Of a stretch of DNA of 64,000 nucleotides, positions 8,733 through 47,587 are shown piece by piece. The DNA is taken from positions 445 to 64,444 of IMG/VR virus record IMGVR_UViG_3300043781_000069, one strand, 5' to 3'. Each line of letters starts with the position of its first letter. Within the stretch, counting starts at the first letter, position 1. A program made the translations under genes and the position numbers. The stretch is from a virus (lineage: Duplodnaviria; Caudoviricetes). The notes beneath the pieces are model-generated. The model was not told the origin of the DNA. It did no database searches and saw only the letters and a list, made by a program, of their open reading frames with translations.

Positions 8733-8803
8733 CTATTTTTCTGTACGTTCGAGGACCGTTACGCTCTCAACATGCCACGAGCTTAATTGATTAATTACAC
8801 ATT
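8733..8803 (-). other. att junction 1: replacement 3' end of rlmD/rumA-type RNA methyltransferase gene plus element arm
   Basis: 8780-8733 reads SWHVESVTVLERTEK*, the HVE catalytic tail of TrmA/RlmD proteins; repeated at 47517-47587. Confidence 0.8.
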
Positions 8804-8981
8804 CTTGCTGAACCGCTTTATTCGGTAGCTTTTGTTATTTACAATGAATTAGCACAGTTATTAACTCGGGAACACAATGCCGGATTTCAGCTAAAATTCG
8901 ACATGAATTGTAGAGCTCAAATTCTAGTGGTTTGTGGGAACAAGCAAGTATCAAAAAATGGATTAGGTAATTTGTGGAAAA

Positions 8982-9380
8982 CTAGATTCCCATTTGATGC
9001 TTTATGATTTGTGTAATCACCCCAGCTGCTACATTAGAAACTAATGTCAGCGAAACACTAGAAAATTTGGACAAAATATTTTTAGTGTCTTTCCACACTC
9101 CGTCATCTCTGATGTTATCTAAGAATTTATGACCTTCATAAGTTAAGTTCCCTGGAGAAATAATAACAGGTTGATTATTTCCCCATTGTACATCACCAGT
9201 AATGTATTTTGCCTCCTTTAATTTCATCACTGTATAGGCAATTTGATTTCTATCATATTCACCATAATTACTAAGATTAGCTAACAGCTCATCTTCCAGA
9301 GGCCCTGTTATATTTTTACTTGACTCAATTGAAAGCATTGTATATCTCACCAAATCATGATTTAACTTCAAATTATTCAC
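8982..9380 (-). CDS. DUF2513-like protein
   Basis: KLNHDLVR..LTYEGHKFLDNIRDDGVWKDTK. Confidence 0.8.
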   Translation of the reverse strand: MNNLKLNHDLVRYTMLSIESSKNITGPLEDELLANLSNYGEYDRNQIAYTVMKLKEAKYITGDVQWGNNQPVIISPGNLTYEGHKFLDNIRDDGVWKDTKNILSKFSSVSLTLVSNVAAGVITQIIKHQMGI

Positions 9381-11351
9381 CTACTTTACCGCATACGAAA
9401 CCTGATCAGTAATATCACAAATTTCAGAAATCTTAGCAATGATAGCTAAAATCACTGTTGCTGAGAAGTTAGTTTCTACCACTGTTCCATTTTCCAATTT
9501 TTCTGGCGCATTCCCTGGCCTAAAGAGCATCCGGCTCAACTGGCGATTTTCTTTGATACGATCAAAGTTAAGGCTATCCTTATTCCAAATATCATTAAGG
9601 AAAGTAACTAGCATTTGACGCCAAGTTTTTACCGGATATTCATTTTCACTAATCGTGATTTGAACTGGTTTTTTACCAGTAACATCAGTGGTCTGATCAA
9701 TAGTATATTCACCAGTAACTTCTTCTTCATTAACCTCTTTGATATCAGGCATTGGGAAGATTTGGATTAACTCTTTCGTCAATTTTTCAGTTCGATCAAC
9801 GATAGAGTCTTTCCCCCACTTATCATATGTTTCTGCAACTTCCCGGGTAAGAGATACATTCGATTCCTTATAGAATTCTTTTTTCTCACTGTAAGGTTTG
9901 TTGCTCATTTCTTGGTTGTATTTCGTGAGAGTTAAATTTCCCAGCGTACCACCATATTGTTCCTTCACCTTGTCGGCATTAGTGACTTGAAGTCGCCATT
10001 CGGCATTGAGTCTTTGTGGCATAATGTGCTCAACCTGGGCATCATCAAAGTTTATTGTTTCCCTGGTCCGATATTCTTCTAGAACAACCAAAGATAATTT
10101 AGCCAGGTGATTCCTTTGATGATATAAATCTACTTCCATCAAGCCATTCGCTAATTTACGGTCATCAGGAAAATTAGCCTTGAGTAGTCTAAGTAGTCTG
10201 AGTCTTAAATTACCTGCTTCCTTGGATAGATCACATAGTCCTACAACAATTTTATTTAGCCCATTGGTTGGCATTTGGCATGCTTTCAACCGGAATAAAT
10301 AACTTTCTAGAATATGCGCCAGCTTATTGGCTTCCTCCTGATCGGTTTCACCTGTATCAACTAAATCCATTAACAGCATCAAATAAGGAAATACAACCTT
10401 GCTATCCATTACGTTGATATGCTCTAAGATTTTGTTAAAGACATCATCATCGGATTTATAATTTAGAATCTGATCATAGTAGGTAGCAAACTTAAACAGA
10501 TCAGCCAAAGCATCTTCCGAACTTAATCCTTGAGAGATGAAATAGTCCTTGTAGCTGTTATAAACACCATTTCTTTTAACAGACACATGCGTTTTTACAA
10601 CTAGATAATGTCGGATGAATTCAGCAAAAGTCTTAGTTGCAAACATCCGCTCTATCTTAACCCAGTATTTTTTATAAAGGTCCGACTGCTCCTGCGAATC
10701 TAGTTTCATTAAAAGAAAGTTTCGCACTAGATCCGAGGATGAGAGTGAAACCCCAGTTGAGTTTAAACTTTCAAAAATGACTTGCGGATTTTCTTCATTA
10801 GGATCACTACTTAACTCAATATAAACCATGTTGAAGTGATTCATTGCTTCATACAATTTAGAACTATCAATGTCTGAATTACTAATCAATTTTTGAAACA
10901 GTCGATAGTTATCGATGACTTTTGACGGCTGATCGTAATCAGCCATTTCATTCATAACAGATTCAAATGCTTCATAGTCATGCTCGACCGGCTTTAACTT
11001 AAGGTGATTATTATCATCAAGATATTTATTGGTTAAATATTCTTCCTCAATTTCAGCGTGGTCTTGTTTATCAGCATCTGATAATGCCTTTAGTAGCAGA
11101 GTCAAACTAGTTAAACGTTGCTGTCCATCAATGATGCGATAGATATGACTCATCTTATTTCCAGTTTCAGTAACATAAACAATCGCGCCTATAAAATGAT
11201 CAGTATCGTTTTGTGCAGCTATCGTTAAATCCTTAAAAAGCTGCTCACACTGTGCTTTATCCCATTCATAATTTCGCTGAAAAACAGGGATTTCAAAAAT
11301 AGTTTTCCCACTTCCTAGGAAATCAAACAGATGGATACTATCAGCTTTCAT
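9381..11351 (-). CDS. GmrSD-type (DUF262 + DUF1524 HNH) modification-dependent restriction protein with extra C-terminal domain
   Basis: IPVFQRNYEW, IIDGQQRLTS, FESLN; VEHIMPQ..LGNLTL..N..MSN. Confidence 0.88.
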   Translation of the reverse strand: MKADSIHLFDFLGSGKTIFEIPVFQRNYEWDKAQCEQLFKDLTIAAQNDTDHFIGAIVYVTETGNKMSHIYRIIDGQQRLTSLTLLLKALSDADKQDHAEIEEEYLTNKYLDDNNHLKLKPVEHDYEAFESVMNEMADYDQPSKVIDNYRLFQKLISNSDIDSSKLYEAMNHFNMVYIELSSDPNEENPQVIFESLNSTGVSLSSSDLVRNFLLMKLDSQEQSDLYKKYWVKIERMFATKTFAEFIRHYLVVKTHVSVKRNGVYNSYKDYFISQGLSSEDALADLFKFATYYDQILNYKSDDDVFNKILEHINVMDSKVVFPYLMLLMDLVDTGETDQEEANKLAHILESYLFRLKACQMPTNGLNKIVVGLCDLSKEAGNLRLRLLRLLKANFPDDRKLANGLMEVDLYHQRNHLAKLSLVVLEEYRTRETINFDDAQVEHIMPQRLNAEWRLQVTNADKVKEQYGGTLGNLTLTKYNQEMSNKPYSEKKEFYKESNVSLTREVAETYDKWGKDSIVDRTEKLTKELIQIFPMPDIKEVNEEEVTGEYTIDQTTDVTGKKPVQITISENEYPVKTWRQMLVTFLNDIWNKDSLNFDRIKENRQLSRMLFRPGNAPEKLENGTVVETNFSATVILAIIAKISEICDITDQVSYAVK

Positions 11352-11354
11352 CTA

Positions 11355-14300
11355 TTATTCCTCCCCAAATTCTCGTTGGACGACTTCCTGCAAAGTACCT
11401 TCTTGGGCATATTTAGCAGCATCAATTTGCTTAAAGTGCTTTTCCATCAAGGAATCCTTTATTTCTTTATCAAAGCCAAAAATATAGTTAGTAGCGATCA
11501 GATAAATAATCCGCGTTGGTGCAAATCCATAAACCTGATGCTCCATAATATGCCTAATTCGTTCATGATCATCAGGGAAAAGTTGCTTCATCTTCTCGCT
11601 TCGGAAGAGACGCTTTACAATCTCGGTGATATATAATCCAGATTTCATGTAAAGGTCAGCAAAAGTCTTATCTGGATCATCAAAGATCCCTGGATTATTT
11701 GTTTCAAGATCATCCACCATATGTTTAACAACTGCTTTTGGTGTAAAAATCTGATTGGTCTTTTGAGGTGGGATGTAATCGAAAATATCCTCTTTGCTAC
11801 TATCATCGAAATAGTTACTTAATTGCTCCATCTTCTCCAGGAATTGTTGAATAGAGTCGTTAAAGACATCCTTGTCAAATAAGTGACCATCAAAATGTTT
11901 CTTTTCATTAGTGTTGGCATCAACATAGTCACCACCATCACGTAAGAAACGGAATTGATCCTCAGTGATACCTGTCACTTCTTTGAACACATCGTCCTCA
12001 GTGTAGTCATCAAAATTCTGAAGTGTCAGATTTTTATCACCATAGGCCATGATAAAACTAGGAATTGTACGAGAAAAGCCACGCAGGTGTGCCCGAGCGT
12101 CCTCTTCAACGTTGTTCAACTTCTTTTGTTCTTCGTTCTTCTCAACACGTTCAACTACTTTAGCCGGAACATCTTCAATAGTCTGTTTTACGTGGTCTTG
12201 CACTCTTTTACCAAAATCATCCACAATATTTTGAACAGTGGTTTCGTATTTTACCTTGGCTTCGTTAAGTTCTGCTTGGTCACGTGCAGCATCTTGTTCC
12301 TTCTTATAATTAACTTCGGCTACTTTCTTCTGATCGTTAAGTTCGTCAGCAATCTTATTTAGAGCCTGTTCATTTTCTTTCTCAATCCGTTGCTGTTGCT
12401 TTTTAGCTTCTCTCTTTGACAAACCATAATCGTTAGCGACTCTGTTAACAACTTCTTTATTTAAGGAGTCATTAACCTTCTTAGAAATAGACTTAGCAGC
12501 TGACTTAAAATCAGTGCTATCCGTATCAGATACTGAATAAACCAATTGATTTCCTAAATCAGAGTAAACCTTATCACCAAAAAGCTCCTTCGATTTGCCA
12601 ATTACCCTTTCCTTAGGAATTTCAACTTCACCATCGTCATTAACAGAAACTTCTTCTGCACCTTCGATGGCATCTTCATCACTTTTCTTAGCTTTACCCT
12701 CTTTAGCAGCTACTAAGCCATTCAAAATTTCACGTACTTCTGCAGGTGCTGCAAAGATTCGAGAAATATTGGTAAATAGGAAATTACTCATAAAGCCACG
12801 TTTAACAACTTCTTGTGACTTTAGCTGACGAGGAATAGACATTACTTGCTTAGCATCAAGTTCAACCATCTTCCCATTGTCATCTTCACCGATAACTGGG
12901 AAAAAATTCAGTAGTTTACGAATGTTCGTTTCATGCTCAGCAGCGGTCCCTTTGCCATTTGAAGTTTCAGCCATTAAGTCATTAGCAAATTCGTCAAAGA
13001 TAGTCAGTGTCCGTGTTGGGTCAAAATCAAAAACATAGGCATTTTCTTTTTGTATTAACTCGCCATTACGCTCAAAAGTATATGGATTTTGTGCTCTAAA
13101 GGCAGCCTGCATGTACTCGGCGGGACTCTTCATACTGGAAAGCATCAAAACGGCCGACCAAGGTTTAACTGTTACACCAGTAGTCAGTTGGCCCACGCTT
13201 AAAGTGATAGTTTTATCGTATTCTTTAGTTGCTTTTTGAACTTTATCAAAGGCTTTCTCATTGGCCTTATCAAGTTGATCATCATTTAATTGGTCATCAT
13301 CAAGTTTGCCATCACCTGCCGCAAGAATAATATGATAATGTTTAAAAACAGGATGCTGCTTCAGTTTCTTTGCCAGAGCTTTAGCACTATCTACTCGGTT
13401 AAGCAGCCAAAAAGTATGTGCAAGTTCTGTTCTTAATTCTGGAGTTGAGAATGGGTATTTTTCTCCAGTAGTTAATGTATCAAGAAAATGATCCACTGCT
13501 TTATCGTAAACAAATTTATCATTCTGCGTTTTGAAAAATTCATTTAAATCAAATGCTGGATCTGCTTTGTCACCATTGTCTAAATCAACACCCTGTTTTA
13601 AAGTGTCTGCTATCATTTCTGATAATTGGTAAGTAAACATGTTTAAGCGTGGCATTACGGCATATGGATTGCTACCACCTTCAGCATCTTCATTCCAATC
13701 GGCTTTGGCTTGTTGTTCATCAGCATAAGACCAGTTGTAGATTTGATCTGCAGCAAATTTACCTTTGGCTAGGGCCTTAAACGGTGTACCAGTAAGATGA
13801 AGTGTATACTTACGTTTGATTTTGTCGAATGCCTTATCCGTCTTATAAGTATCCACACCTTCATGGGCCTCATCAATGATCAATAAATCCCAGTTAAGAT
13901 CTTCAATCCACTTTAATTTGTCGTATTCTCCACCAAAGTAAACCGAACCTTTTAACCCTTGAAGACTCTCAAAAACAACCTGACCATAATCATTGCCATC
14001 AGAAATGGAATCAATAAATTCCTGACGAGAAAGTACTGGCTTATCTTTTAAGGCATCCGTTTCACTAACGAATTTAAGATTAGTTTGCCAGGCAATAAAT
14101 TTGTCAAAATCATCAAACCAGGAGTTTGCAATACTAGGCCGATTTGTAACTACCAGTACATTCTGCATCTGCATCTTACGGATTAAGTCATAAGTAGTGA
14201 GTGTCTTACCAAACCGTGGCTTAGCATTCCACAAGAATTCGCTGCCTTCACCATTTTTAAGAAAGTAAGCAATTGTTTGATCAACTGCCTTTTGCTGTTC

Positions 14301-14699
14301 TTTACGAAGCTCATACTGAACATGCTTATCATTACCTTGAACATTCCCATAATCACGGTCAGCAAATTCGTGAAAGTAATGATGTGAAGTTGGACCATCA
14401 ATGTGAAACCACTCTGTCCTAGGTTTCCGTTCAATCTGCTTTTTCTGGGTTAAGTAATCATGAAAATCATGGTCGGTAAAGGTTTCATCGGACCCATCTT
14501 CATATCGAGCATTGCCACGCCATAACAATTTAACTTTGGCATCAACGGTATGGCTCTGTTGCTTAATTCGATCTTCAACAGATTGTGATGCAGTGTAACC
14601 TATCTTAGTCCATCCATTATGTGAAATATCGTTAGGAGTGGTGTAGGCATAAATCATTGGAATGATTCGTTTGAATGATTTAATTTTAGGCATTGCCAT
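11355..14699 (-). CDS. Restriction subunit: GIY-YIG/T5orf172 nuclease + SF2 helicase + coiled coil + degenerate MTase-like C-terminal domain
   Basis: IYAY..KIGYT..VEDRIKQ; AKPRFGKT, IIDEAH, LTGTP, QAAFRAQ; QIFTPKAVVKHMVDDL..FADLYMKSGLY. Confidence 0.8.
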   Translation of the reverse strand: MAMPKIKSFKRIIPMIYAYTTPNDISHNGWTKIGYTASQSVEDRIKQQSHTVDAKVKLLWRGNARYEDGSDETFTDHDFHDYLTQKKQIERKPRTEWFHIDGPTSHHYFHEFADRDYGNVQGNDKHVQYELRKEQQKAVDQTIAYFLKNGEGSEFLWNAKPRFGKTLTTYDLIRKMQMQNVLVVTNRPSIANSWFDDFDKFIAWQTNLKFVSETDALKDKPVLSRQEFIDSISDGNDYGQVVFESLQGLKGSVYFGGEYDKLKWIEDLNWDLLIIDEAHEGVDTYKTDKAFDKIKRKYTLHLTGTPFKALAKGKFAADQIYNWSYADEQQAKADWNEDAEGGSNPYAVMPRLNMFTYQLSEMIADTLKQGVDLDNGDKADPAFDLNEFFKTQNDKFVYDKAVDHFLDTLTTGEKYPFSTPELRTELAHTFWLLNRVDSAKALAKKLKQHPVFKHYHIILAAGDGKLDDDQLNDDQLDKANEKAFDKVQKATKEYDKTITLSVGQLTTGVTVKPWSAVLMLSSMKSPAEYMQAAFRAQNPYTFERNGELIQKENAYVFDFDPTRTLTIFDEFANDLMAETSNGKGTAAEHETNIRKLLNFFPVIGEDDNGKMVELDAKQVMSIPRQLKSQEVVKRGFMSNFLFTNISRIFAAPAEVREILNGLVAAKEGKAKKSDEDAIEGAEEVSVNDDGEVEIPKERVIGKSKELFGDKVYSDLGNQLVYSVSDTDSTDFKSAAKSISKKVNDSLNKEVVNRVANDYGLSKREAKKQQQRIEKENEQALNKIADELNDQKKVAEVNYKKEQDAARDQAELNEAKVKYETTVQNIVDDFGKRVQDHVKQTIEDVPAKVVERVEKNEEQKKLNNVEEDARAHLRGFSRTIPSFIMAYGDKNLTLQNFDDYTEDDVFKEVTGITEDQFRFLRDGGDYVDANTNEKKHFDGHLFDKDVFNDSIQQFLEKMEQLSNYFDDSSKEDIFDYIPPQKTNQIFTPKAVVKHMVDDLETNNPGIFDDPDKTFADLYMKSGLYITEIVKRLFRSEKMKQLFPDDHERIRHIMEHQVYGFAPTRIIYLIATNYIFGFDKEIKDSLMEKHFKQIDAAKYAQEGTLQEVVQREFGEE

Positions 14700-14702
14700 T
14701 GT

Positions 14703-15755
14703 CTAGTCCATCTCCTTTACTTTGGTTTCAATAAAATTGATTTCTTCCTGGTTTAATCCATATTTCTTGTACAGTTGCTGATCAATATCATGAACGGATT
14801 TTGACCAATCTATATCAGAATGTTGGGTAAAGTCTTGCAATGGAATATTAACCCAAGTGCGTTTCTTATTATCCTGCGTTACTTTCAGCGTACCTAGCAT
14901 CGCTCGTGCAAATTTCGACTTAATATATTTCATAGCCGCTTTCGTACAATTTATATCTTGAAAGTTACCAATTGTAATAAATGTTTGAGTTCCCCCGATT
15001 AGGGGTTCCCCGATTAGGGGTTCCCCGATTAGGGGTGTGGTTAAAACCTCTCCAAGTGCACCGCTACCATTTGATTTAGGAACTAAAATTTTGTAATTTT
15101 CCAGATTATCCGGTCCCTTAACATACTTACTCTTGATCCATTTTAACGTTCTTCGATTATTTTGCCGACCGTATAATCCTACATATTGCTCTGAACTACC
15201 AGAAGGCTTTACATTTTGAAAAATATCACCTAATTTATCAAAAATGTTAGTAGTAATATCAAATTTATGTCCCTTACTTAATCGCGACCCTATATCTGGA
15301 AAATCGTCATGTAATTTTTGGGTAAGCTTATAGCTTTCTGGCGCATAAATAAGTTCACTAAATGATTTAAAATTGCTTGTTTTTACTTTTTTTAGTATAG
15401 AATTTAATTCTGCATAGGGTGTAAATGTACCAATTGCGCCAAAACTCGAATCTACATCTCGATATGTAACACAAACTCCACCTTTAATATCTGTATTACT
15501 AAAAACTTTACTACTATCCTGCTCGAAAAAAAGTACTTTTAAATGAGGATCTTTTAACATCTTCTCATTCCATTTTTTGGGCGTTTTTCCTGCATTAGAT
15601 AAGAATTTAGCGGGTGTTATTAGCTCAACCTTTTTTCCAATTTTATAGGCCTGATCCATAAAATATGGAAAAATCTGTTTATCACTAGTTCCCTCAACTT
15701 CTTCTTGATATGGTGGATTACCAATTACAACATCAAATTTAAATTCTTTACTCAT
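14703..15755 (-). CDS. Eco57I-like adenine methyltransferase catalytic half plus target-recognition domain
   Basis: FDVVIGNPPY (motif IV) at N-terminus; no motif I. Confidence 0.85.
   Translation of the reverse strand: MSKEFKFDVVIGNPPYQEEVEGTSDKQIFPYFMDQAYKIGKKVELITPAKFLSNAGKTPKKWNEKMLKDPHLKVLFFEQDSSKVFSNTDIKGGVCVTYRDVDSSFGAIGTFTPYAELNSILKKVKTSNFKSFSELIYAPESYKLTQKLHDDFPDIGSRLSKGHKFDITTNIFDKLGDIFQNVKPSGSSEQYVGLYGRQNNRRTLKWIKSKYVKGPDNLENYKILVPKSNGSGALGEVLTTPLIGEPLIGEPLIGGTQTFITIGNFQDINCTKAAMKYIKSKFARAMLGTLKVTQDNKKRTWVNIPLQDFTQHSDIDWSKSVHDIDQQLYKKYGLNQEEINFIETKVKEMD
14993..15036. repeat. In-frame 15-bp tandem repeat x3 (PLIGE)
   Basis: CCCCGATTAGGGGTT twice plus a 14-bp third copy. Confidence 0.95.
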
Positions 15756-15758
15756 TTT

Positions 15759-16496
15759 CTATCCCATCCTAAATACTTTAGTAATAATAATTTTCTGCTT
15801 ACTCGTATCATCACTATTTTCTAAGTCATCAAATAGACTTAATTGACCTTCATTAGCGCCTATATCATTTGCATCACTATTATTGAACAATGATTTAAAA
15901 GTAAAAATCTCTCGTTCAACTTTTGATCCAGACGGAATCCAGTTGCTAAAAGTAATTAACTTTCCATCATCATTTCTATAGGTAAGTGTATTACCCTGGA
16001 CGATATTTAAATTGATTACATATTTTGCTGATTTATAAATATCAGTTTTTGAACTCAAACTTTTCTGCATAAAGGCTTGATAATGATTGACAAAAATATT
16101 CATCATTGCTTCTTTTGATCGAGCTAAATTATCTTTCAACAATTCAATAGCGTAAATGCTCATTAATGACCATAATGCGTTGCTTTTCCAAGTTGTTTTA
16201 TTAGAAATTTGGTCTACATAGTTCAGCTTCTGATGTAGGATTTCTTTCAAGAAAGCACCCTCACCTGCACTAGGTTCAAAAAAAGTGGCATGCAGATCAT
16301 GAAGCTTTTCTTGAATAGCCGGTTCAGACAGCATCTTTTTCACCATCCATTTAGGGGTAAAAACTTCACCATGATGTTGAACTCGTTCCTTAGACTTAAT
16401 TAGGTGACCATCATCACCTATTGCTTTTAATTCAAATTTTTTATGATCGGTTTCAAATTTTTGATCATCGAAAAGGCTTATTTCTTCCTTGCTCAT
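15759..16496 (-). CDS. Methyltransferase N-terminal (SAM-binding) half
   Basis: HGEVFTPKWMV, FFEPSAGEGAF (motif I), IYAIEL, IVQGNTL; no NPPY. Confidence 0.85.
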   Translation of the reverse strand: MSKEEISLFDDQKFETDHKKFELKAIGDDGHLIKSKERVQHHGEVFTPKWMVKKMLSEPAIQEKLHDLHATFFEPSAGEGAFLKEILHQKLNYVDQISNKTTWKSNALWSLMSIYAIELLKDNLARSKEAMMNIFVNHYQAFMQKSLSSKTDIYKSAKYVINLNIVQGNTLTYRNDDGKLITFSNWIPSGSKVEREIFTFKSLFNNSDANDIGANEGQLSLFDDLENSDDTSKQKIIITKVFRMG

Positions 16497-16539
16497 TTTA
16501 AATAAATGTCACCTCTATCCTCCTGTATTATTCCTTCTG

Positions 16540-16758
16540 TTACTTTCGTACGATCTCCATAATGTCACTAATATCGCAGTCTAAGGCCTTACAAACCTTT
16601 AGTAATACCTCAATCGTAACATTACCATTCCTACCCAACTTAGCAATTGAAGCGGCACTAACTCCACTAGCCTGTTGTAGATCTTTCTTTTTCATGCCAC
16701 GATCAATTAATAGCTTCCATAATTTGTTGTAACTGATGCTTAAGTTTTCGTTATTCAT
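16540..16758 (-). CDS. Xre/Cro-C1 HTH regulator (possible R-M controller)
   Basis: ISYNKLWKLLIDRGMKKKDL..LLKVCKALDCDISDIME. Confidence 0.9.
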   Translation of the reverse strand: MNNENLSISYNKLWKLLIDRGMKKKDLQQASGVSAASIAKLGRNGNVTIEVLLKVCKALDCDISDIMEIVRK

Positions 16759-16769
16759 GATTACTTCCT

Positions 16770-19382: not shown

Positions 19383-19386
19383 GCTC

Positions 19387-20703: not shown

Positions 20704-20952
20704 TTTGCTTCCCAGCTTTTTTGGAGTTTTTCGGAGTTTCATATAAAAACTCGGAGGTGGATTTATGCCCATCTTGTTACTATTCAAATATCAGCTAAAG
20801 ATTAGTACTTAACAATAATAATTATACCAGACCAGCATTGTTTTCTCGGATAATTATTTTTACATTCGCACATATTTTTAGCTGATGAGCGTGGGATAAA
20901 TGATCAATATCCATTACTAGCATGCCATCCCAATTTAATAACACTCTGTGAC

Positions 20953-21075: not shown

Positions 21076-21082
21076 AATTTTT

Positions 21083-21601: not shown

Positions 21602-21624
21602 TTAGAAAAAAGTGGACCACAGTA

Positions 21625-21653
21625 GGTTCACTTTTTTGTTGTCTCTGGCAAAT
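21625..21653 (+). promoter_or_regulatory. Element-specific bipartite motif GGTTYACTT-N11-CTGGCWWAT (copy 1)
   Basis: Same motif and spacing at 25892, 40557, 59074, 63356. Confidence 0.6.
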
Positions 21654-37186: not shown

Positions 37187-37854
37187 AACGCTTCTGGAAC
37201 TGGAATCAAGATGGCGATCAGCGTCAGCTAGCTATTTCTGGGGTAATTGCTCCCGATAGCTGGATTCATGACGATGTTTCGCCACAAGTATTCCAAGATG
37301 AACTTAATGAAAGCCAAGGACCAATCGATCTCTGGCTTAACTCACCCGGTGGCGACTGCACCGCTGCCAGTCAAATCTACACGATGTTGATGAATTATCC
37401 AAATGACGTCAACGTCAAAATCTCAGGAATTGCGGCTTCGGCAGCTTCAGTCATTGCCATGGCAGGGACGACCGTTTCGATGGCTCCTTCTGCTATGCTG
37501 ATGATCCACAATCCCTTAACCATTGTTGGTGGCCAAGAAAAGGATCTCGATCACGCAGCTCAAATGCTAGTGGAAACTAAAGAAGCCATTATCAATGCTT
37601 ACGAACTGAAAACAAACCTACCCCGCGAGAAGATTTCAGCCATGATGGATGACGAAACCTGGATGAACGTCAATAAAGCGATCGAGTTGGGCTTCGCTGA
37701 CGATATGCTAGGTCAAAACAAAGATGTCACGGATTGTTACTCCTATTCAGATAAACAATCTGAATTGGTTCTATTGAACAAGCTAAAACCACAAGCAAAA
37801 TCTAATATCTCTGTAAAGTCGCTGCAAAAGCGGCTTTCTTTGTTATCACACTAA
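37183..37854 (+). CDS. ClpP-like head maturation protease
   Basis: LNSPGGD, AASAASVIAMAG, LMIHNP, ETWM..AIELGFAD. Confidence 0.92.
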   Translation: MKRFWNWNQDGDQRQLAISGVIAPDSWIHDDVSPQVFQDELNESQGPIDLWLNSPGGDCTAASQIYTMLMNYPNDVNVKISGIAASAASVIAMAGTTVSMAPSAMLMIHNPLTIVGGQEKDLDHAAQMLVETKEAIINAYELKTNLPREKISAMMDDETWMNVNKAIELGFADDMLGQNKDVTDCYSYSDKQSELVLLNKLKPQAKSNISVKSLQKRLSLLSH

Positions 37855-39068: not shown

Positions 39069-39347
39069 GTGGCTGCTATTACTTTGGCCGAAGCAAAAGC
39101 CTACCTGAGGGTGGATAACACTGTTGAGGATGACCTAATTACGAAGTTAATTGGATCGGCAACAGCTACAGTCGAGAATGTACTTCGTCAACCACTATCC
39201 GCATTCGACCCCCTCCCCGATGATATTCATACCGCAATTCTTTATACCGTGGCTTACCTTTATGAATATCGGGAAACAGCTGATTTTGATGCCATGATTA
39301 AATTTCTTCGGGCCATCTTGTCCCCTTACCGGAAGGAGGAATTTTAA
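39069..39347 (+). CDS. Head-tail connector (HK97 gp6-like)
   Basis: ITLAEAKAYLRVD..EDDLI..AILYTVAYLYEYRE. Confidence 0.9.
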   Translation: MAAITLAEAKAYLRVDNTVEDDLITKLIGSATATVENVLRQPLSAFDPLPDDIHTAILYTVAYLYEYRETADFDAMIKFLRAILSPYRKEEF

Positions 39348-39730
39348 TGCAACAGCAAAACGAACGTATCAGTAAGATTGCTGATATTGGTGAGCTAGAT
39401 CGCCGCATTACGCTGACGAAAAAGAAATATGTCGGCGAAAATCCTAATACTGGAATGTCGATGTACAAGGATGTTCGCCTGGGCGATGTCTGGGCAAAAG
39501 TTTCTGCCCTGCACGGTCAAGAGTATTACACGGCGGTTAGTGTGAAGTTGGAAAAACAATTGTCCTTTATTATACGATATCGCGATGATGTTGACGAAGA
39601 AACCAACATTTGGTTTGAAGGCCATGGCTATAACATTGGTTTTATTGATGACGTCAAGTATAACCACGAGTATATGGAGATCAAGGCTGAATATTCGAGA
39701 GGAGTTGATAATCCGAATGAAGACAACTAG
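39347..39730 (+). CDS. Head-closure / head-tail adaptor (SPP1 gp16-like)
   Basis: IGELDRRITL..VWAKVSALHGQEY..FIIRYR..IWFEG..YNI. Confidence 0.85.
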   Translation: MQQQNERISKIADIGELDRRITLTKKKYVGENPNTGMSMYKDVRLGDVWAKVSALHGQEYYTAVSVKLEKQLSFIIRYRDDVDEETNIWFEGHGYNIGFIDDVKYNHEYMEIKAEYSRGVDNPNEDN

Positions 39731-40127
39731 TTTAACGGTAATCAATACTTGTTTTGGAGCTATTGGAGCCTTTCTTGGCTGGTTTCTAGGAGGACTCGAC
39801 GGTTTCTTATATGTTCTCCTGATTTTTATGGTCGTGGACTACATCACTGGAGTCCTTTGCGCAGTTAATGAGCATAAGCTCTCCAGCGAGATTGGCTTTC
39901 GTGGGCTTACGCGCAAAGTATTAATCCTATTGTTAGTTGGCATTGCACATTGCCTTGATATTTACCTATTAAAGAATGGTTCAGCAATCCGTACCGCTAC
40001 TATTTTCTTCTATATCTCTAATGAAGGTATTTCTCTATTAGAAAATATAAGCCGTCTGGGGCTACCCGTACCTGATAAATTGAAAAGTGTTCTCCAACAA
40101 TTGCACGATAAGGACGATAATAACTAA
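39717..40127 (+). CDS. Phage holin (toxin-secretion/phage lysis family)
   Basis: LGWFLGGLD..VVDYITG..LSSEIGFRG..FYISNEGISLLEN..GLPVP. Confidence 0.9.
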   Translation: MKTTSLTVINTCFGAIGAFLGWFLGGLDGFLYVLLIFMVVDYITGVLCAVNEHKLSSEIGFRGLTRKVLILLLVGIAHCLDIYLLKNGSAIRTATIFFYISNEGISLLENISRLGLPVPDKLKSVLQQLHDKDDNN

Positions 40128-40285
40128 CTTTTACCTGTGGACTGCGGTCTGCAGGCTTTTTGTTGTTTCTATGGTAAAATATCATCAGGTCTGAAATGGT
40201 GGGTCGCTCCCAACATGGAAGGCTTAGTGATAAGGACATGGTCGCATCACCCTTCAACTATTCCTGATAACGCGAGGTGATGACT

Positions 40286-40412
40286 ATGTTAATTTGGAAA
40301 GAATCGAGGACTCGGCATTACTGCCGCCATAGTTATCGTGGCAGTCGGCCAGTTGATCATTGACTGCGCCAAAGCCTACGCGATAATAAAAAAAGCCAAC
40401 CATAACGGTTAG
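40286..40412 (+). pseudogene. Small hydrophobic peptide, type I toxin-like (one extra base near 40298)
   Basis: GAGGTG RBS; removing one A gives MLIWKNRGLGITAAIVIVAVGQLIIDCAKAYAIIKKANHNG*. Confidence 0.55.
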
Positions 40413-40480
40413 CTTCATCCTCGATCATTCCTGATCACGCTTGAGGGTAACGAGATGCAGCTCGTTGCTCTCTTTTCTTT
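40388..40480 (-). ncRNA. Putative antisense antitoxin RNA
   Basis: Minus-strand TTGAAA-N17-TATCAT promoter (40513-40485); terminator hairpin 40393-40415 followed by U-run. Confidence 0.5.
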
Positions 40481-40556
40481 TATTATGATAGCTGATCTAT
40501 CCTGTTTTTTCAACTTTTTAGCTGGCAGTTTTCTGTCAGCTTTTTTCTTTTACCAT

Positions 40557-40594
40557 GGTTTACTTTTCGACCTCCGCTGGCTTATCAGTGGAGG
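40557..40594 (+). promoter_or_regulatory. Bipartite motif copy 3, upstream of recombinase operon
   Basis: GGTTTACTT-N11-CTGGCTTAT; CCTCC..GGAGG stem covers the RBS. Confidence 0.6.
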
Positions 40595-40602
40595 TAATTA
40601 AG

Positions 40603-40842
40603 ATGACCAAACAAGTTAAAGAAGTAACTCATCAACCACTGACGTCGATCAATACAACAATTTCGCAAAAGCAATTGCTAAATGACTTACATTATCGACA
40701 ATCCAAACAGATCATCCAACATTTGCTGGATCAAGGGTTGATTTCGGCTGATCAATTTCAAAAGATTGACCAATTAAACAAGCAGTCCTTTCCACCACTA
40801 TATAGTCCTGAATGTGTTGCTACATCAACGATCCAGAGCTAA
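40603..40842 (+). CDS. Small SHOCT-like protein preceding recombinases (candidate directionality factor)
   Basis: LLDQGLISADQFQKIDQLNKQSF; GGAGGT RBS before ATG 40603. Confidence 0.65.
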   Translation: MTKQVKEVTHQPLTSINTTISQKQLLNDLHYRQSKQIIQHLLDQGLISADQFQKIDQLNKQSFPPLYSPECVATSTIQS

Positions 40843-40871
40843 CATACCACACTGACGAAAGGAGGTTTGCC

Positions 40872-42533
40872 ATGTCGACCATTACTAAAATTCAAGGTTA
40901 TCACAATGATGTCAAGCAACTACGTGTGGCAGCCTACTGCCGGGTTTCTACTGACAATGTCGAACAGTTGGAAAGTCTGCAAAATCAGCGTGAGCATTAT
41001 CAGGAGTACATTAGTCACCATCCCAATTGGCAACTTGCCAAAATCTACTATGATGAAGGCATTTCTGGCACTAAATTAACGAAACGGAATGCTTTAAAAG
41101 AATTACTGGGTGATTGTCGCAATCACCGGATTGACCTGATAGTAACCAAATCCATCAGTCGCTTATCACGAAATACGACTGATTGTTTACAAATTGTCCG
41201 TGAATTGCAACAGCTGAACATTCCGATCATTTTTGAAAAGGAACATCTTAATACTGGTGCAATGGCGAGTGAACTATTCTTGTCCATTCTCAGTAGTATC
41301 GCTCAGGATGAATCGCGCTCCACAGCTGGCAACTTACGCTGGGCAATTCGGCAGCGCTTTGCCAGTGGTGAATTTAGAGTATCTTCTGCACCTTACGGTT
41401 ATAAGCTTCGAGATGGCAACTTATTAATCTATCCAGCAGAAGCACGGACCGTGAAACATATTTTCCATAAATTTCTGACTGGCACTTCTGCCACGCAAAT
41501 TGCTAAAGAGCTAAATGGACATCAAGTTGCTACCCAACGTGGCGGTCACTGGCGCAGTAATACGGTCCTTAACATTCTACGAAACATCAACTACACCGGT
41601 GACATGCTGTGCCAGAAAACTTATCGTGATGATCAATATCATCGCCATTTCAACCATGGTGAACTAGCCCAATACCTAATTGAAAACCATCATCCAAGTT
41701 TGATCAGTCACCAAGCCTTCGATCAAGCTCAGAAAATAATTAAGGAAAATGCGCAAAAGCGCCACATTGAAGTCGGTACTCACAAGTATCAGCAACATTA
41801 TCCTTTCTCAGGAAAAATCATCTGTGGATATTGCAGTACCACCTTTAAGCGACAAACCAGACCTAATAAAATCTGTTGGGCATGTCAAAAGCACTTAAAG
41901 TCTGCCAAGCAATGCCCGATTAAAGCAATTAGTGAAGAAAGTTTGGAAGCCGCCTTCTGCAGCATGATGAATAAGTTAATCTTCAGCCAGAAGTTCCTAC
42001 TGCAACCATTGCTTGAAGAACTACAAAATCAAGCTAATAGCAATTCCAATGGTGAATTAGGAAAATTGGCTGAGCAAATCAAAGCTAACGACCATAAGGC
42101 CGAAACGCTAACCCGATTGATGCAATCAGGGCTGCTCGACAAGGCCATTTATGTTAACCAAACGGCCAAACTAGAACAAGACACTTATCAATGCCGACAA
42201 AAGATCAAACTACTGAATAGTCAAAACACTGATTCAGCCAACAATTTTGAAGAAGTCAGGTCTTTACTGTGTTGGTGCCAGAAAGGGCAAACGCTAACCA
42301 GCTTTAATCCCAACTTATTTCAAACTTTTGCACAGCAAATCATTGTCAACGATCCGACTGAAGTGATTTTTAAACTCAAATGTGCCTTGGAATTAACTGA
42401 AAAACTAACCAAGAAAGCCGCAGTCTATCAACAATTCTACCGTGGCATCATTAAGCAACGGTTCAATGAACCAATCAAGCAAGCAGAATATCTGTACAGC
42501 ATTATCGAAAGTGAAGGTGATTTAATTGGGTAA
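40872..42533 (+). CDS. Large serine recombinase
   Basis: [26 protein letters not shown], Zn-ribbon CGYC. Confidence 0.93.
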
Positions 42534-44109
42534 AGTACGCATTATTCCTGCCCATCAGCAAAAAGGAAACAGTGTCCATCATCAACGTAGTCCACAATCT
42601 TTTGAAAAGCTCCGGGTAGCTGCTTATTGCCGGGTTTCGACCGACTATGATGAGCAAACTAGCTCCTACGAAACTCAGGTAGCTCACTACAAAGAGCTAA
42701 TTCAAAAGGAACCAACCTGGGAATTTGCAGGTATCTATGCTGATGATGGAATCTCCGGAACCAACACCAAGAAACGGGAACAATTCAATAAAATGATTGC
42801 GGCCTGTAAAGCCGGTAAAATTGACTTAATTGTCACCAAGTCAATTAGCCGATTTGCTCGAAATACTATTGATTGCCTGAAGTATATCAGAGACTTAAAA
42901 GCCTATCAATGTTGCGATCTTCTTTGAAAAGGAAAATATCAACACCATGGATGCCAAAGGTGAAGTTCTGATTACCATCATGGCTTCCCTTGCTCAACAA
43001 GAAAGTGAGTCCTTATCGCAAAACGTCAAGATGGGGATTCAGTACCGCTATCAGCAAGGAAAAGTATTCGTGAATCATAATCACTTCCTGGGCTATACCA
43101 AGGATGCTCAAGGTAACTTGGTAATTGAACCGGAAGAAGCCAAGGTTATTAAACGGATCTTCTATAGCTACCTAAACGGAATGAGCATGAAGCAAATCGC
43201 TGATTCACTCAAAGCTGATGGTATTCTGACTGGTGGCAAAACAAAAAATTGGCGCTCTAGCAGCGTGGCCTAAAATCCTAAAAATGAAAAATACATGGGT
43301 GATGCCCTTTTACAGAAGACTTACACCGTTGACTTTCTTAATAAAAAACGAGTGAAGAATGAAGGCATCATGCCACAATACTACGTGGAGAATGATCACC
43401 CGGCGATTATTCCCAAGTCTGTTTTCATGCAAGTACAGCAGATCATCAAACAGCGCCGAAATGGTATCACTACTAAGAACGGTAAGCATAGGCGCCTTAA
43501 CGGTAAATATTGCTTCTCTCAAAAAATATTTTGTGGTAAGTGCGGTGATATCATGCAGCGAAACATGTGGTATCGACCAGAGAAAGTAGCAGTCTGGCGC
43601 TGTGCAAGCCGCGATAAGGACGCAAGTAAAACTGGTCCGGCGCTGCATGATTCGAAACGTCAAAGAACCCCTTGCTAAAGAAGCCACAGTTGAAGCATTC
43701 AACCAGCTCATTGAAGGGCATGAGCTTAGCCAACAAACAAATCAAAGCCAACATCATGAAGGTCATCGAGAACTCTAAAGGACCAACACTCGATCAAATC
43801 GACCAACAGCTGGAAGAAGTGCAAATGAAGTTGATTCAAGCTGCCAACCAGCATCAAGACTGCGACGCACTAACCCAGCAAATCATGGACCTTCGCAAAC
43901 AAAAAGAAAAAGTACAGAGTCGGGAAACTGATCAACAAGCCAAACTACACAGCCTTGATGAAATCAACAAATTAGTCGAATTGCACAAGTATGGCTTAGT
44001 TGACTTTGATGAACAATTGGTTCATCGCTTGGTAGAAAAAATCACCATCTTCCAACGCTACATGGAGTTCACGTTCAAAGATGGTGAAGTTATCAGAGTA
44101 AATAAATGA
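42526..44109 (+). pseudogene. Second large serine recombinase, several frameshifts
   Basis: [45 protein letters not shown] across four ORFs. Confidence 0.9.
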
Positions 44110-44445: not shown

Positions 44446-47319
44446 CTATTCTTTGCGCTGCCGCTTAGTCATTCCAAAGAGCCCTAACAAACTACTCATG
44501 GCTAATAGTAATAAGCCACTCAGCGTCATGTGTTGTTGATCAGTTTCACCAGTTTGAGGCAACCGTTGATCCACAAAATTAGTAGCCGCTGCTTGACCAG
44601 CCTGAACCGGCTTTGTTGGCGTCGCTGGTTGACTTGGGTTAACTGGTTTTGCTGGCGTCGTTGGTTGAATTGGATTAACTTGTTTTGCTGGCGTCGTTGG
44701 TTGAATTGGATTAACTGGTTTTGTTGGCGCATCCTTGGCATAAACCACCGTGAAATCAAGATCACTGGAGTCACCACTCACAGTTTGTGCCCCAATTTCA
44801 GCCTGGTCTGGCGTATAACCCTTAATAACTGGACTAGTTACTGCCGCAAAGCTTTGATCAGCTGACCAAGACCCATAGGTCTTTTCACCTGTAACCGTAT
44901 CAGTTGAAACTTGACGCGTAAATTCAACCGGCTTGGCCACATAATCATCATGAGCTGTCGTACCATCTTTGTAGACGTAATGGATAGTTTCATTAATCGT
45001 CTTGCTTTCAGTTGTAATAGTTGGCGCATTCTTGGCATAAACCACCGTGAAATCAAGATCACTGGAGTCACCACTCACAGTTTGTGCCCCAATTTCAGCC
45101 TGGTCTGGCGTATAACCCTTAATAACTGGACTAGTTACTGCCGCAAAGCTTTGATCTGCTGACCAAGACCCATAGGTCTTTTCACCTGTCACCGCATCAG
45201 TTGAGACTTCACGCGTAAATTCAACCGGCTTGGCCACATAATCATCATGAGCTGTCGTACCATCTTTGTAGACGTAATGGATAGTTTCATTAATCGTCTT
45301 GCTTTCAGTTGTAATAGTTGGCGCATTCTTGGCATAAACCACCGTGAAGTCAAGATCACTGGAGTCACCACTCACAGTTTGTGCCCCAATTTCAGCCTGG
45401 TCTGGCGTATAACCCTTAATAACTGGACTAGTTACTGCCGCAAAGCTTTGATCTGCTGACCAAGACCCATAGGTCTTTTCACCTGTAACCGTATCAGTTG
45501 AAACTTGACGCGTAAAGGTCACTTGAGCGGTGTTATCAGCAGGAGTTTGATTACCAGCGCCTTGATAATGAATAGTCTCTGTAAGGGTTTTGGCCTCTGT
45601 AGACTGAATGTTTTGATGCTTCAAGTGAACCGTGAAATTCTGATCAGTTGTGTCATCATTGTCGAACGTCAAATCTGCTGGATAGCCATCGGTGACCAAC
45701 TCATACCCTTGTTTCTTATAATCGGCAATGCTACCGCTGGTACTATAGCTGGATTTTGAACCCGTTGTTCCTGAGATTGAGTCCGTCTTTAAAGTTTTTC
45801 CGGTCGTATCATCAACGTAGCTGACACTACCTTTTTGCTTATCTGCTGTATAGGTGATCGTTGTATCTGTACCAATATCAGAAGGTGTTGGTGGAATATA
45901 GCCCTTAGTACGATCATCGGGATTAACTGGCACCAAAGGAGTCCCCATATGATCTTCAGGTGTATAGCCAGGAATAAAAGCAATAACCGGATAATCAGGC
46001 ACCGATGAATCAGCAATCTTAGTAGGGTCACTAGGATCATTGGGATAAATAATTGATGTTGTCGAGCCATTAGGATTAGAGACGACCCAGTTGCCGAGCT
46101 TGCTGTAAACATACTTAATATCAGAGGTTTGTGGAATATATGGATTTAAAATTCCGTATGTCGCAGAACCTAGTGGATACATTATCGCAGAACCTGAGGG
46201 CTTTATACCTGTCCATGTTTTGAGAACTTTTCCATTTTGAGCAATTGAAGCAGACATTGTTCCATCTGAACCAGTCTGAGTGTAAGTAATAACTACTCCA
46301 TTATGAAAGTTTTTAACATAACTAGCACCAATCTCTCCGTATGGTGACATAACGCCATTTGAATTAGAAGGTGCAGTAGCATAGTAACCATTTACAACAT
46401 TTACGTCGCTGGTCGTATAATTTTGGCCAACTAACCCTTTTTGTGTATAAGGAGCAACTGGATTACCATTACTGTCGGTGATTTGCTTGCCATCTTTATC
46501 AACGTAATAGGTTGTTTGTGTGATCAATTTGGGTACAAAATAAGAAAGTGTACTGTAGTAGTTACTATCAAATTTACTAGCAGTATATTTAGTAACAAAA
46601 CTATTGTTTGAACTTTGAACCATTTCAAAATAAGCATCATTATAGTAGGTAGTGCTATCAAATACAGCAGATGTTACCTGAGTATTTTGATTTAAAGTGT
46701 ATTGTTTTAAAACTTTATTTAATGCCGATAATTCCGTTACATAAACAATTCCATCGCCCGTTCGATTAGTTGAAAAAACAATCTGGTTTCCACCATATTT
46801 TGCTTGCAACCATTCATAACTGTAATGAGAGTTATCTGGATCAATCCACATTCCAGATGGATAATCTGGATCACTAACTGAGAAACCCGTATTGGTAACT
46901 GAACCTGCCAATACCTTTCTACCGTAGTTTTGAGCAAACTTAGTTGTAACTATTGCACTATTTTTAGAAACATTAGTGGCTATCTGCGCTACACTCTGTT
47001 TTCCACCTGCACTGGTTACATCAGCCTTTGCTGCACTGCTACTACTTGCACTAGTCGTTTCGGCCTTTGCTGCACTGCTACTACTTGCACTAGTCGTTTC
47101 GGCCTTTGCTGCACTGCTACTACTTGCACTAGTCGTTTCGGCCTTTGCTGCACTGCTTGAGGTGCTGGTGGCTGTCACATCAGCTGACACTGGCTGGCTG
47201 GTAACTAGCATCCCTAATCCCAGCGAAAATAATGAAATCCCCATGACAGCCCAATTCTTACCGCATTTATATAATTTATAATGCGTTTTAGTCTCTCCAA
47301 AATAATTATTCCTTAACAT
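44446..47319 (-). CDS. Cell-wall-anchored mucus-binding (MucBP/Mub) adhesin
   Basis: KLYKCGKNW (KxYKxGKxW) signal, Ser/Ala repeats, Mub-type repeats, Pro-rich spacer, LPQTG + TM + basic tail. Confidence 0.9.
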   Translation of the reverse strand: MLRNNYFGETKTHYKLYKCGKNWAVMGISLFSLGLGMLVTSQPVSADVTATSTSSSAAKAETTSASSSSAAKAETTSASSSSAAKAETTSASSSSAAKADVTSAGGKQSVAQIATNVSKNSAIVTTKFAQNYGRKVLAGSVTNTGFSVSDPDYPSGMWIDPDNSHYSYEWLQAKYGGNQIVFSTNRTGDGIVYVTELSALNKVLKQYTLNQNTQVTSAVFDSTTYYNDAYFEMVQSSNNSFVTKYTASKFDSNYYSTLSYFVPKLITQTTYYVDKDGKQITDSNGNPVAPYTQKGLVGQNYTTSDVNVVNGYYATAPSNSNGVMSPYGEIGASYVKNFHNGVVITYTQTGSDGTMSASIAQNGKVLKTWTGIKPSGSAIMYPLGSATYGILNPYIPQTSDIKYVYSKLGNWVVSNPNGSTTSIIYPNDPSDPTKIADSSVPDYPVIAFIPGYTPEDHMGTPLVPVNPDDRTKGYIPPTPSDIGTDTTITYTADKQKGSVSYVDDTTGKTLKTDSISGTTGSKSSYSTSGSIADYKKQGYELVTDGYPADLTFDNDDTTDQNFTVHLKHQNIQSTEAKTLTETIHYQGAGNQTPADNTAQVTFTRQVSTDTVTGEKTYGSWSADQSFAAVTSPVIKGYTPDQAEIGAQTVSGDSSDLDFTVVYAKNAPTITTESKTINETIHYVYKDGTTAHDDYVAKPVEFTREVSTDAVTGEKTYGSWSADQSFAAVTSPVIKGYTPDQAEIGAQTVSGDSSDLDFTVVYAKNAPTITTESKTINETIHYVYKDGTTAHDDYVAKPVEFTRQVSTDTVTGEKTYGSWSADQSFAAVTSPVIKGYTPDQAEIGAQTVSGDSSDLDFTVVYAKDAPTKPVNPIQPTTPAKQVNPIQPTTPAKPVNPSQPATPTKPVQAGQAAATNFVDQRLPQTGETDQQHMTLSGLLLLAMSSLLGLFGMTKRQRKE
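44724..45515. repeat. 297-bp near-identical intragenic repeats (about 2.7 copies, Mub B2-type)
   Basis: TTGGCGCAT.CTTGGCATAAACCACCGTGAA recurs at about 44724, 45021 and 45318. Confidence 0.9.
47024..47157. repeat. 39-bp tandem repeat x3.4 (AETTSASSSSAAK)
   Basis: GCCTTTGCTGCACTGCTACTACTTGCACTAGTCGTTTCG repeated exactly. Confidence 0.95.
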
Positions 47320-47516
47320 AAAAGAACCGACCTTTTTCACTTTTTTAGATAAAATCATGCCAAAATCCCATCATTAAATCAAATGGTTTCAAGAAACTAC
47401 ATTAATAATAACACTCAAGGCATAAAAAGCAAAAAGTGTACTAATTCCAATCGTTTGGGAAGGAAAATGCACACTTTCAATCTATCTAGAAATACCGTCA
47501 TACCGGCGTTTAGCGG

Positions 47517-47587
47517 CTATTTTTCTGTACGTTCAAGGACGGTAACGCTCTCAACATGCCACGAGCTGATGTTATCAATTACACATT
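47517..47587 (-). other. att junction 2: replacement 3' end of rlmD/rumA-type gene plus element 3 arm
   Basis: 47564-47517 reads SWHVESVTVLERTEK*; three synonymous differences from 8733-8780; shared AATTACACATT at the same offset. Confidence 0.8.

Follow-up and report, generated by a model that had tools for sequence, protein, structure and literature searches.

A family of tail-less, head-encoding integrative elements of Limosilactobacillus that probably spreads on the tails of other phages

Phage-inducible chromosomal islands that form capsids (cf-PICIs) carry an HK97-type packaging and head gene set without a tail (PMC10085698). In the parts of that study that deal with detection and layout, the median size is 14 kb, elements larger than 30 kb were discarded, a holin was treated as a 'forbidden' component, and the left module holds a PICI-like integrase, a regulator and a primase. 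The part of a further study that concerns particle assembly describes how DNA-filled, tail-less capsids of cf-PICIs are released and then bind free tails, those of other species included (10.1101/2025.02.11.637232). Here we analyse element 2, a unit of 38,784 bp at positions 8776-47559 (plus strand) of a stretch of 64,000 nucleotides, hereafter the window, which was taken from the IMG/VR virus record IMGVR_UViG_3300043781_000069 (64,444 bases). Element 2 is the middle copy of a tandem array and encodes heads but no recognisable tail.

Like cf-PICIs such as EcCIEDL933 and KpCIDSM30104, element 2 and its relatives have their own HNH, terS, terL, portal, protease, capsid, head-tail adaptor and connector genes, use HK97-type packaging, lack a tail and occur as closely similar elements across different species. 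Unlike cf-PICIs, the family has units of 36-40 kb, and of its 19 relatives examined all possess a holin and 11 an endolysin. It has no small PICI-like left module but a PolA/SSB (single-stranded DNA-binding protein)/DUF2800/primase/SNF2 module, two cargo arms and, at the right end, two large serine recombinases. Its capsid lineage is nested in Heliusvirales-type phages, and its origin, as judged from sequence, is independent of that of cf-PICIs.

The backbone of element 2 recurs, in the same order, in temperate siphophages of Candidatus (Ca.) Heliusvirales, of which Acutalibacteraceae phage NatCom_11578 (PV036426) is an example, and in the streptococcal Phi-m46.1 / Phi1207.3 group. A minus-strand arm, an early regulator, a DUF2800-type exonuclease, SSB, PolA, a helicase/primase, HNH, a methylase and the terminase are followed by portal, protease, capsid, the adaptor Ad1, the head closure protein Hc1, holin, endolysin and two serine recombinases. 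Capsid identity to 24 Heliusvirales-type phage records was 54-59%; homologous capsid and terminase, gene order and integration at rum are common to both, and the tail is not. The Heliusvirales-type phages measure 49-64 kb and have about 11 kb of tail genes between Hc1 and holin (neck and tail completion, major tail, chaperone, tape measure, Dit and tail-associated proteins), whereas the Lactobacillaceae clade, at 36-40 kb, has none. Our reading, to which we give a probability of about 0.6, is that element 2 represents an integrative family of 36-40 kb in Limosilactobacillus and a few other Lactobacillaceae, which descended from Ca. Heliusvirales / Phi-m46.1-type phages by one clean deletion of the tail module between Hc1 and holin, and whose heads use the tails of foreign siphophages.

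No tail gene was found in the unit, which agrees with the original prediction, made by a model from the sequence alone. In the annotated relative PV036426 (Ca. Heliusvirales, 58.7 kb), nine genes occupying about 11.3 kb lie between Hc1 and holin, and the endolysin and two serine recombinases follow. The nine tail proteins of this phage gave no match at E<=1 in six complete tail-less units, while its holin was 56-64% identical to the holins of the same units. Similarly, 465 open reading frames (ORFs) located downstream of the capsid gene in 38 tail-bearing loci matched the six units only at the connector, Hc1, holin and recombinases, and PHROGs comparison of 40 arm proteins revealed no tail family among the first 25 of 55 families. 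The cut coincides exactly with the divide between genes for completing a DNA-filled head and genes for tail building. In the window, the stop codon of Hc1 (TAG, 39728-39730) overlaps the holin gene, whose ATG at 39717 is preceded by AGGAG, so that the overlap of adaptor stop and holin start noticed earlier was reproduced. The absence of an endolysin, also claimed at first, is true of the window copy, where the endolysin query gave nothing below E=5, and of 8 of the 19 relatives, but not of the family, because 11 of the 19 carry a GH25+CW_7 endolysin between holin and SHOCT (one of them with a stop). The holin was present in all 19 relatives and in the window.

These searches also bear on whether the family could be a complete virus that needs no borrowed tail, either because it encodes an unrecognised tail or entry device or because its tail-less heads are themselves infectious. 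We consider this very improbable. Retention of the holin and often of the endolysin would make autonomous lysis possible, and several small conserved ORFs have no assigned function; however, for each of the conserved core ORFs a counterpart occupies the same position in relatives whose tails are complete, the arms vary and are defence-like in character, and the 465 query ORFs disclosed no tail homologue. To our knowledge, no HK97-fold head infects without a tail.

A capsid-based scan of species-representative genomes returned 79 loci, 19 of which came from Lactobacillaceae (mostly Limosilactobacillus, plus Lactiplantibacillus garii and metagenome-assembled genomes, MAGs) with capsid identities of 79-100%. 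All 19 showed the order Ad1, Hc1, holin, a gap of 0-1.3 kb, SHOCT, recombinase 1 and recombinase 2, with Hc1 and holin separated by -10 to +14 nt, and none had a tail-protein match. At the remaining loci capsid identity was 59% or less and, where downstream sequence suffices, mostly tail matches or an ORF of 760-2272 aa were found. The IMG/VR set comprised 53 loci with at least 75% capsid identity, some of them on the same contigs as the genome loci; no tail match was detected in any of the 53, and 46 of the 48 with enough sequence had the Hc1-holin junction, the other two having a damaged Hc1 or holin. A contiguous DNA match from the capsid end through Ad1 and Hc1 to the holin was obtained in 17 of 74 Limosilactobacillus species genomes. 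Among 401 sampled Lactobacillaceae genomes, ten had a capsid homologue: seven at 89-99% identity, one remnant with stops, and two distant ones (59% and 45%), both with full tail modules. The original prediction had proposed to survey the adjacency of adaptor, holin and recombinases and had considered that close relatives might carry tails at this place. The adjacency is conserved in all three surveys (19/19 and 46/48 loci, and 17/74 species genomes), and a tail module at the junction was seen only in cousins with capsid identities of 59% or less.

In a quick maximum-likelihood capsid tree, the 19 tail-less rows formed one clade with an SH-aLRT value of 100 among tail-bearing lineages, and the tail-bearing cousins have nine tail genes (about 11 kb) between Hc1 and the orthologous holin. 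The tail-less layout is ancestral to a single clade. Megablast of positions 21000-44200 against a phage collection gave no match, and relatives were detected by protein-level search. One locus in a genome placed in Lactobacillaceae, L168 (G322:C39:28000-47900), is a Heliusvirales-type prophage with a tail. The proteins of this tail share 62-82% identity with their counterparts in an Acutalibacteraceae phage, with one extra short match at 32%, and either that lineage has a wide host range or the contig is mis-binned.

Nine complete units were delimited, of 36,327, 37,267, 37,580, 37,934, 38,167, 38,784, 38,932, 39,635 and 40,135 bp, the last under the assumption that its MAG contig is circular; the narrow length distribution (36.3-40.1 kb) is the one foreseen at the outset. 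Left arms of 10.2-12.5 kb and right arms of 1.8-3.6 kb differ in cargo among units, which includes Hachiman, type I restriction-modification, PDC-S06, methylases, adhesins, NAD-salvage genes and an insertion sequence (IS) element; the variable right arm holds pncA/pncB/nrtR in locus L001 and an IS plus ferritin in L006. It had been suggested that about 15 kb of cargo replaces the tail module and keeps the unit at ordinary siphophage size. This idea was not sustained: PV036426 has an equivalent minus-strand arm of 13.7 kb, with a methylase and a helicase, ahead of its early genes, and since tail-bearing relatives carry the same arm, the cargo does not replace tails. What sets the tail-less units apart is just their smaller length, about 38 kb where the related phages have 49-64 kb (24 of the 25 related phage records listed measure 49.2-63.9 kb, and the other 90 kb).

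The head genes are under strong constraint, contrary to what neutral decay would produce. Ratios of nonsynonymous to synonymous divergence (dN/dS), expressed as medians of pairwise Nei-Gojobori estimates at median dS values of 0.37-1.42, were 0.013 for terL, 0.022 for terS, 0.025 for Hc1, 0.026 for Ad1, 0.028 for holin, 0.035 for portal, 0.038 for capsid and 0.051 for ClpP. Over the ten packaging, head and holin genes measured they ranged from 0.013 to 0.065, and recombinase 1 gave 0.088. Since the junction is common to them, the relatives diverged to this extent when the tail was already gone. Reading frames in the relatives were intact for terS (16/16), terL (16/16), portal (15/16), ClpP (17/17), capsid (18/19) and for Ad1, Hc1 and holin (19/19 each), and the ratios of intact to broken copies at the IMG/VR loci were 36:3 for terL, 42:4 for portal and 46:4 for capsid. 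Culture-collection strains of L. frumenti, L. antri, L. panis and L. coleohominis, from which loci L003, L014, L015 and L007 derive, are among the bearers of intact copies. The spacer between HNH and terS measures 123-126 nt in 17 of 17 sequences, contains long invariant blocks and is far more conserved than neighbouring synonymous sites (median dS of terS, 1.1), as would be expected for a cos or packaging site, for which it is a candidate.

Host and element divergence disagree strongly. Between loci L006 and L007 the synonymous difference was 0.94 in the host gene rumA, 0.00 in terL and 0.07 in portal; between L007 and L012 it was 0.81 in rumA, 0.00 in terL and 0.02 in capsid, and in both pairs the methylase and recombinase 2 were near saturation. 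It follows that the elements have recently crossed between species and undergone recombination. The family resembles defective prophage remnants in missing the tail module and in the CheckV completeness of its IMG/VR records (70-93%), and the array contains a true remnant, element 1. However, such remnants evolve neutrally and decay idiosyncratically, whereas the family shares one identical, uniform junction over dozens of copies in at least 17 species, its genes are under purifying selection and it shows recent exchange between species. It is a monophyletic, mobile and selectively maintained lineage that keeps heads without tails. Five IMG/VR family records (G076-G080; 34.6-46.5 kb) were rated 70-93% complete by CheckV; members score as incomplete phages because the reference genomes include tails.

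The same data have to be set against another explanation, namely that the family is a domesticated or defective prophage lineage, kept for its cargo of defence islands and adhesins or for a lysis or capsid function that benefits the host, and moved by generalised transduction in the heads of others, by transformation or by contact-dependent transfer. Its cargo arms are rich in defence systems, no helper was found, two of five host genomes are without detectable siphophage tail genes, and the endolysin is also lost in 8 of the 19 relatives; in addition, related streptococcal elements reportedly undergo conjugation-like contact transfer. We regard this explanation as rather unlikely, since a carrier that does not use its own heads should lose them, as the tails were lost, whereas the ten packaging, head and holin genes are held at dN/dS values of 0.013-0.065, the HNH-terS spacer is conserved and unit length stays within 36-40 kb despite differing cargo.

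Spread by borrowing the tails of other phages is the probable course, and may be pictured as follows. The serine recombinases would excise the element and the PolA/primase/SNF2 module would replicate it. HNH, TerS and TerL would make their cut at the conserved HNH-terS spacer and load heads of HK97 type that the element itself encodes, with Ad1 and Hc1 closing them. The holin, together with the element's own or a foreign endolysin, would release the heads and, by analogy with the cf-PICI precedent, these would become infectious only on joining tails from an unrelated siphophage.

Several observations weigh against tail borrowing. The analysis revealed no particle, no DNA in packaged form, no excised circle and no transfer; IMG/VR records bearing the motif were inspected for a free or circular form and proved to be proviruses or linear fragments within chromosomal sequence. 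In genome G004, another contig with the motif was considered as attP and rejected, being a 100% duplicate of attL. Searches of five isolate host genomes with the Phage_HCP, Sipho_tail and tape-measure Pfam families identified no helper and no consistent partner: three of the five hosts have only the element's own Phage_HCP, and in G004 and G009, where Phage_HCP likewise occurs just in the element, neither Sipho_tail nor the tape measure was matched. Among cultured phages no Hc1 exceeds 37% identity, and the nearest homologues are HK97-like Hc1 proteins. Conservation of Ad1 and Hc1 does not prove tail docking, because heads require both simply to keep their DNA inside. In length, the tail-less units fall 11-25 kb short of relatives with tails, which bears on how the heads are filled. 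Finally, terS, terL, the primase, SNF2 and recombinase 2 are broken in the window copy, and at terL position 35083 the read tables show only a loose end and no clear correction.

About ten 1-bp indels distinguish the window copy from all relatives and interrupt terS, terL, the primase, SNF2, the ParB-methylase, a 206-aa gene and recombinase 2 (positions in Table 1). The head module had been described as complete; this stands for portal, ClpP, capsid, Ad1 and Hc1, which are intact here and almost always in the relatives, but not for terS and terL, whose frames are broken in the window copy. We compared the window with contigs from three DNA runs and one RNA-library run of other studies, which cover it incompletely in some cases (X8, several bins). 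Intact letters were present at 28289, 29909, 30152, 31843/31862, 42902 and 43269/43279 in whichever runs cover each place, no single run covering all of them; the extra base at 28289 was absent from the contigs of X1, X3 and X8. Run X1 represents the window best, several of its pieces elsewhere matching it with 0 differences. The RNA-library contigs of X15 cover all 30 bins, which is no proof of transcription. In the MAG copy whose left arm nearly equals that of the window unit, element A of G001 (L081/L001), HamA is split by a frameshift at unit positions of about 10600-12000, and HamA of the window is intact; each assembly therefore carries indels that the other lacks.

Single-base consensus errors are in our view the more likely source of the window indels, rather than decay, because all lesions are 1-bp indels, some of them in short homopolymers of a repeated region. 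A less favoured but by no means negligible account is that the window copy is a dead, decaying middle member of its array, with real frameshifts, from which no capsids would form. The genes hit by the indels are terS, terL, the primase, SNF2 and recombinase 2 as well as the methylase; element 1, the neighbour on the upstream side, is a clear deletion remnant, and older copies would lie further from rumA under the integration model given below; moreover, long cargo genes are intact in the same record, so that errors would not be uniform. On the other hand, the lesions are exclusively single-base, several lie in short homopolymers and five are clustered within 65 bp, a pattern characteristic of long-read consensus errors where DNA is repeated, and contigs of other runs carry intact letters at most of these places, although they may hold a sister copy instead.

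The boundaries of element 2 were established by comparing the window with itself. A direct repeat of 157 bp (8648-8803 / 47431-47587) with 80% identity terminates at the junction ...CTCAACATGC followed immediately by CACGAG-N11-AATTACACATT, which gives unit ends at 8776 and 47559. The first delimitation, 8781-47564, differs only in phase, for which the shared letters leave free choice, and describes this same unit of 38,784 bp; both ends bear the repeat and the junction motif. The left-end motif was found at the left ends of units in 8 of 10 relatives' genomes searched. In relatives, the corresponding ~130 bp close the element and a conserved host gene follows directly; its product (458 aa; TRAM and tRNA_U5-meth_tr in Pfam) is a rumA-type rRNA methyltransferase, and the integration point of the element, which carries serine recombinases, is the 3' end of this gene. 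The rum target named in the original prediction is confirmed, the last codons being supplied by the element; Phi-m46.1 is likewise said to use rum as its integration target.

The native, displaced end of rumA reads ...HVESVTVLER(V/T/TDK/D), against the element-supplied end HVESVTVLERTEK. As the right end of the element supplies the last codons of rumA, integration rebuilds the gene and an attB-like sequence: attR resembles attB and attL resembles attP. Mimicry of the rumA 3' end by the right end was seen at window positions 8700-8803 and 47500-47587 and in L006 at 19379-20755, and a second copy of the rumA 3' end (8648-8775) terminates element 1. The rebuilt attB-like site would allow repeated integration, which explains the tandem arrays here and in the MAG behind L001 and L009. 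Both window junctions (8775/8776 and 47559/47560) run into the left-end motif of another element and not into rumA; the window is therefore a tandem array without host flank. A self-regenerating attB would put the newest copy beside rumA and the oldest furthest away, with which the greater degradation of element 1 than of any other copy in the array fits.

Element 1, which extends to 8775, is a deletion remnant of the same family. It retains, at 3355-5547, the C-terminus of SNF2, the 155-aa gene, HNH and an intact 180-aa terS, 83% identical to 29945-32096 of element 2; beyond terS the sequence passes abruptly to a YafQ/Phd-type toxin-antitoxin pair (5616-6208) and an HTH_38 protein, and the conserved right end occupies 8376-8775. 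Upstream of the retained block, at 2381-2941, lies an isochorismatase gene. Element 3 begins at 47560 with a defence arm of its own (AbiH-like, Vsr, Z1/helicase, NgoFVII-like nuclease, helix-turn-helix (HTH), Dcm methylase and PDC-S06 AAA_13) and breaks off where the record ends. From 58351 onwards its core shares 79.5% identity with 20902-26524 of element 2 and includes a paralogue of the sigma-like regulator at 58532-59050. Part of this arm seems to recur in the L. coleohominis unit, where ORFs of 375, 622, 108 and 349 aa correspond by length comparison only to ORFs of 375, 618, 108 and 349 aa here.

Annotation of element 2 from the ORF listing and Pfam, PHROGs and PADLOC scans is summarised in Table 1. 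Gene content and order from HNH to the recombinases were as first described, as was the distinct element family with its own PolA/SSB/primase/SNF2 module and serine recombinases. The left arm, with a GC content of 0.36 against 0.44 in the core, encodes DUF2513, a GmrSD-type type IV nuclease, an HTH protein, Hachiman HamB (870 aa) and HamA (466 aa), and type IIG/II restriction-modification-like genes of 1114, 350 and 245 aa; its identity to the corresponding arm in element A of G001 is 97-100%. Between holin and SHOCT lies a 415-bp segment that is 99.8-100% identical in L007/L009, 82% identical in L001/L002 and absent in other relatives; it is missing from the contigs of public runs X1 and X8 and has no Rfam match. 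Within the adhesin gene, at 44723-45516, there are 297-bp tandem repeats of 98% identity, whose number seems different in the L009 copy. Rfam and tRNA scans of the window gave no match.

Table 1. Features of element 2 by window position, with the basis of each assignment and the places of single-base indels
Feature	Position	Strand	Basis and remarks
Left-end motif CACGAG-N11-AATTACACATT, attP-derived half	8776-8803	+	identical motif at 47560-47587 opens next element
Left cargo arm	8982-20787	-	Pfam, PADLOC, composition
Sigma-70 region-4-like regulator	21032-21601	+	Pfam; opens rightward operon
DUF2800 PD-(D/E)XK nuclease, Enc34-type SSB, family A DNA polymerase (644 aa, intact); replication genes	22202-25884	+	Pfam
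D5-type primase-helicase	26359-28616	+	Pfam, PHROGs; three ORFs here; extra G at 28289
VRR-NUC nuclease and SNF2 helicase (interrupted)	28664-30446	+	Pfam; SNF2 indels at 29909, 30152
155-aa late-activator-like protein and HNH endonuclease	30443-31435	+	PHROGs phrog_248 (transcriptional activator); Pfam
HNH alone	30998-31435	+	Pfam
HNH-terS spacer, candidate cos/packaging site	31436-31554	+	123 nt by tblastn ends
Small terminase terS (180 aa in relatives)	31555-32096	+	PHROGs; broken here, two 1-base deletions at 31864, 31897
ParB-N6/N4 DNA methylase, 206-aa amidoligase-like gene (interrupted), DUF5049	32096-34222	+	Pfam, PHROGs; methylase frameshift (indel) at about 32897
Large terminase terL (539 aa in relatives)	34286-35883	+	Pfam; ATPase and nuclease halves in different frames here; 1-base deletion at 35083
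Portal (424 aa)	35912-37186	+	Pfam; intact
ClpP-type prohead protease (223 aa)	37183-37854	+	Pfam; intact
HK97-fold major capsid protein (392 aa)	37874-39052	+	Pfam; intact; 100% identical to L001
gp6-like head-tail adaptor/connector Ad1 (92 aa)	39069-39347	+	Pfam
Head closure Hc1 (Phage_HCP, 127 aa)	39347-39730	+	Pfam; PHROGs phrog_25
Holin Phage_holin_4_1	39717-40127	+	Pfam; overlaps Hc1 stop
415-bp segment without long plus-strand ORF	40161-40577	+	present or absent among relatives
SHOCT protein	40555-40842	+	Pfam
Large serine recombinase 1 (573 aa)	40812-42533	+	Pfam; intact
Large serine recombinase 2 (525 aa in relatives)	42526-44109	+	Pfam; four pieces here; indels at 42904 and in a cluster at 43612-43677
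Right cargo arm: LPXTG mucus-binding adhesin (970 aa)	44446-47358	-	Pfam; KxYKxGKxW signal, MucBP/Muc_B2 repeats
Right-end copy of rumA 3' end	47431-47559	-	gives interrupted gene its last codons (...HVESVTVLERTEK)

A survey of the literature on Heliusvirales, capsid-forming satellites and cf-PICIs, m46.1/rum and Lactobacillaceae prophages, with subscription journals outside its coverage, yielded no description of such elements; in the available portions of a paper on Heliusvirales (PMC11283538), Lactobacillus occurs only in the title of a cited reference and satellites go unmentioned. The family escapes satellite finders because a holin is a forbidden marker for them and elements larger than 30 kb are discarded. 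Whether it constitutes a new class of satellites, the 'tail-only parasites', appears to us an evenly balanced matter. Its members would be near-complete temperate phages minus the tail, three times the size of cf-PICIs and of independent, Heliusvirales-type origin, which have their own replication, packaging, heads and lysis, cross Limosilactobacillus species on whatever siphophage tails are available, bring along defence and adhesin cargo of 12-16 kb, and accumulate as tandem copies at an attB in rumA that regenerates itself.

If the heads are indeed completed with foreign tails, capsid-forming satellites would not be limited to small PICI-like islands, and a full-size temperate phage could turn into a tail parasite while retaining its replication, packaging and lysis genes. 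About a quarter of the examined Limosilactobacillus species genomes contain the family, which carries cargo of Hachiman, restriction and adhesin genes between species of gut, food and bioreactor lactobacilli. Since harmless cultured type strains have members of the family, tail-borrowing by an element of Gram-positive bacteria is directly testable.

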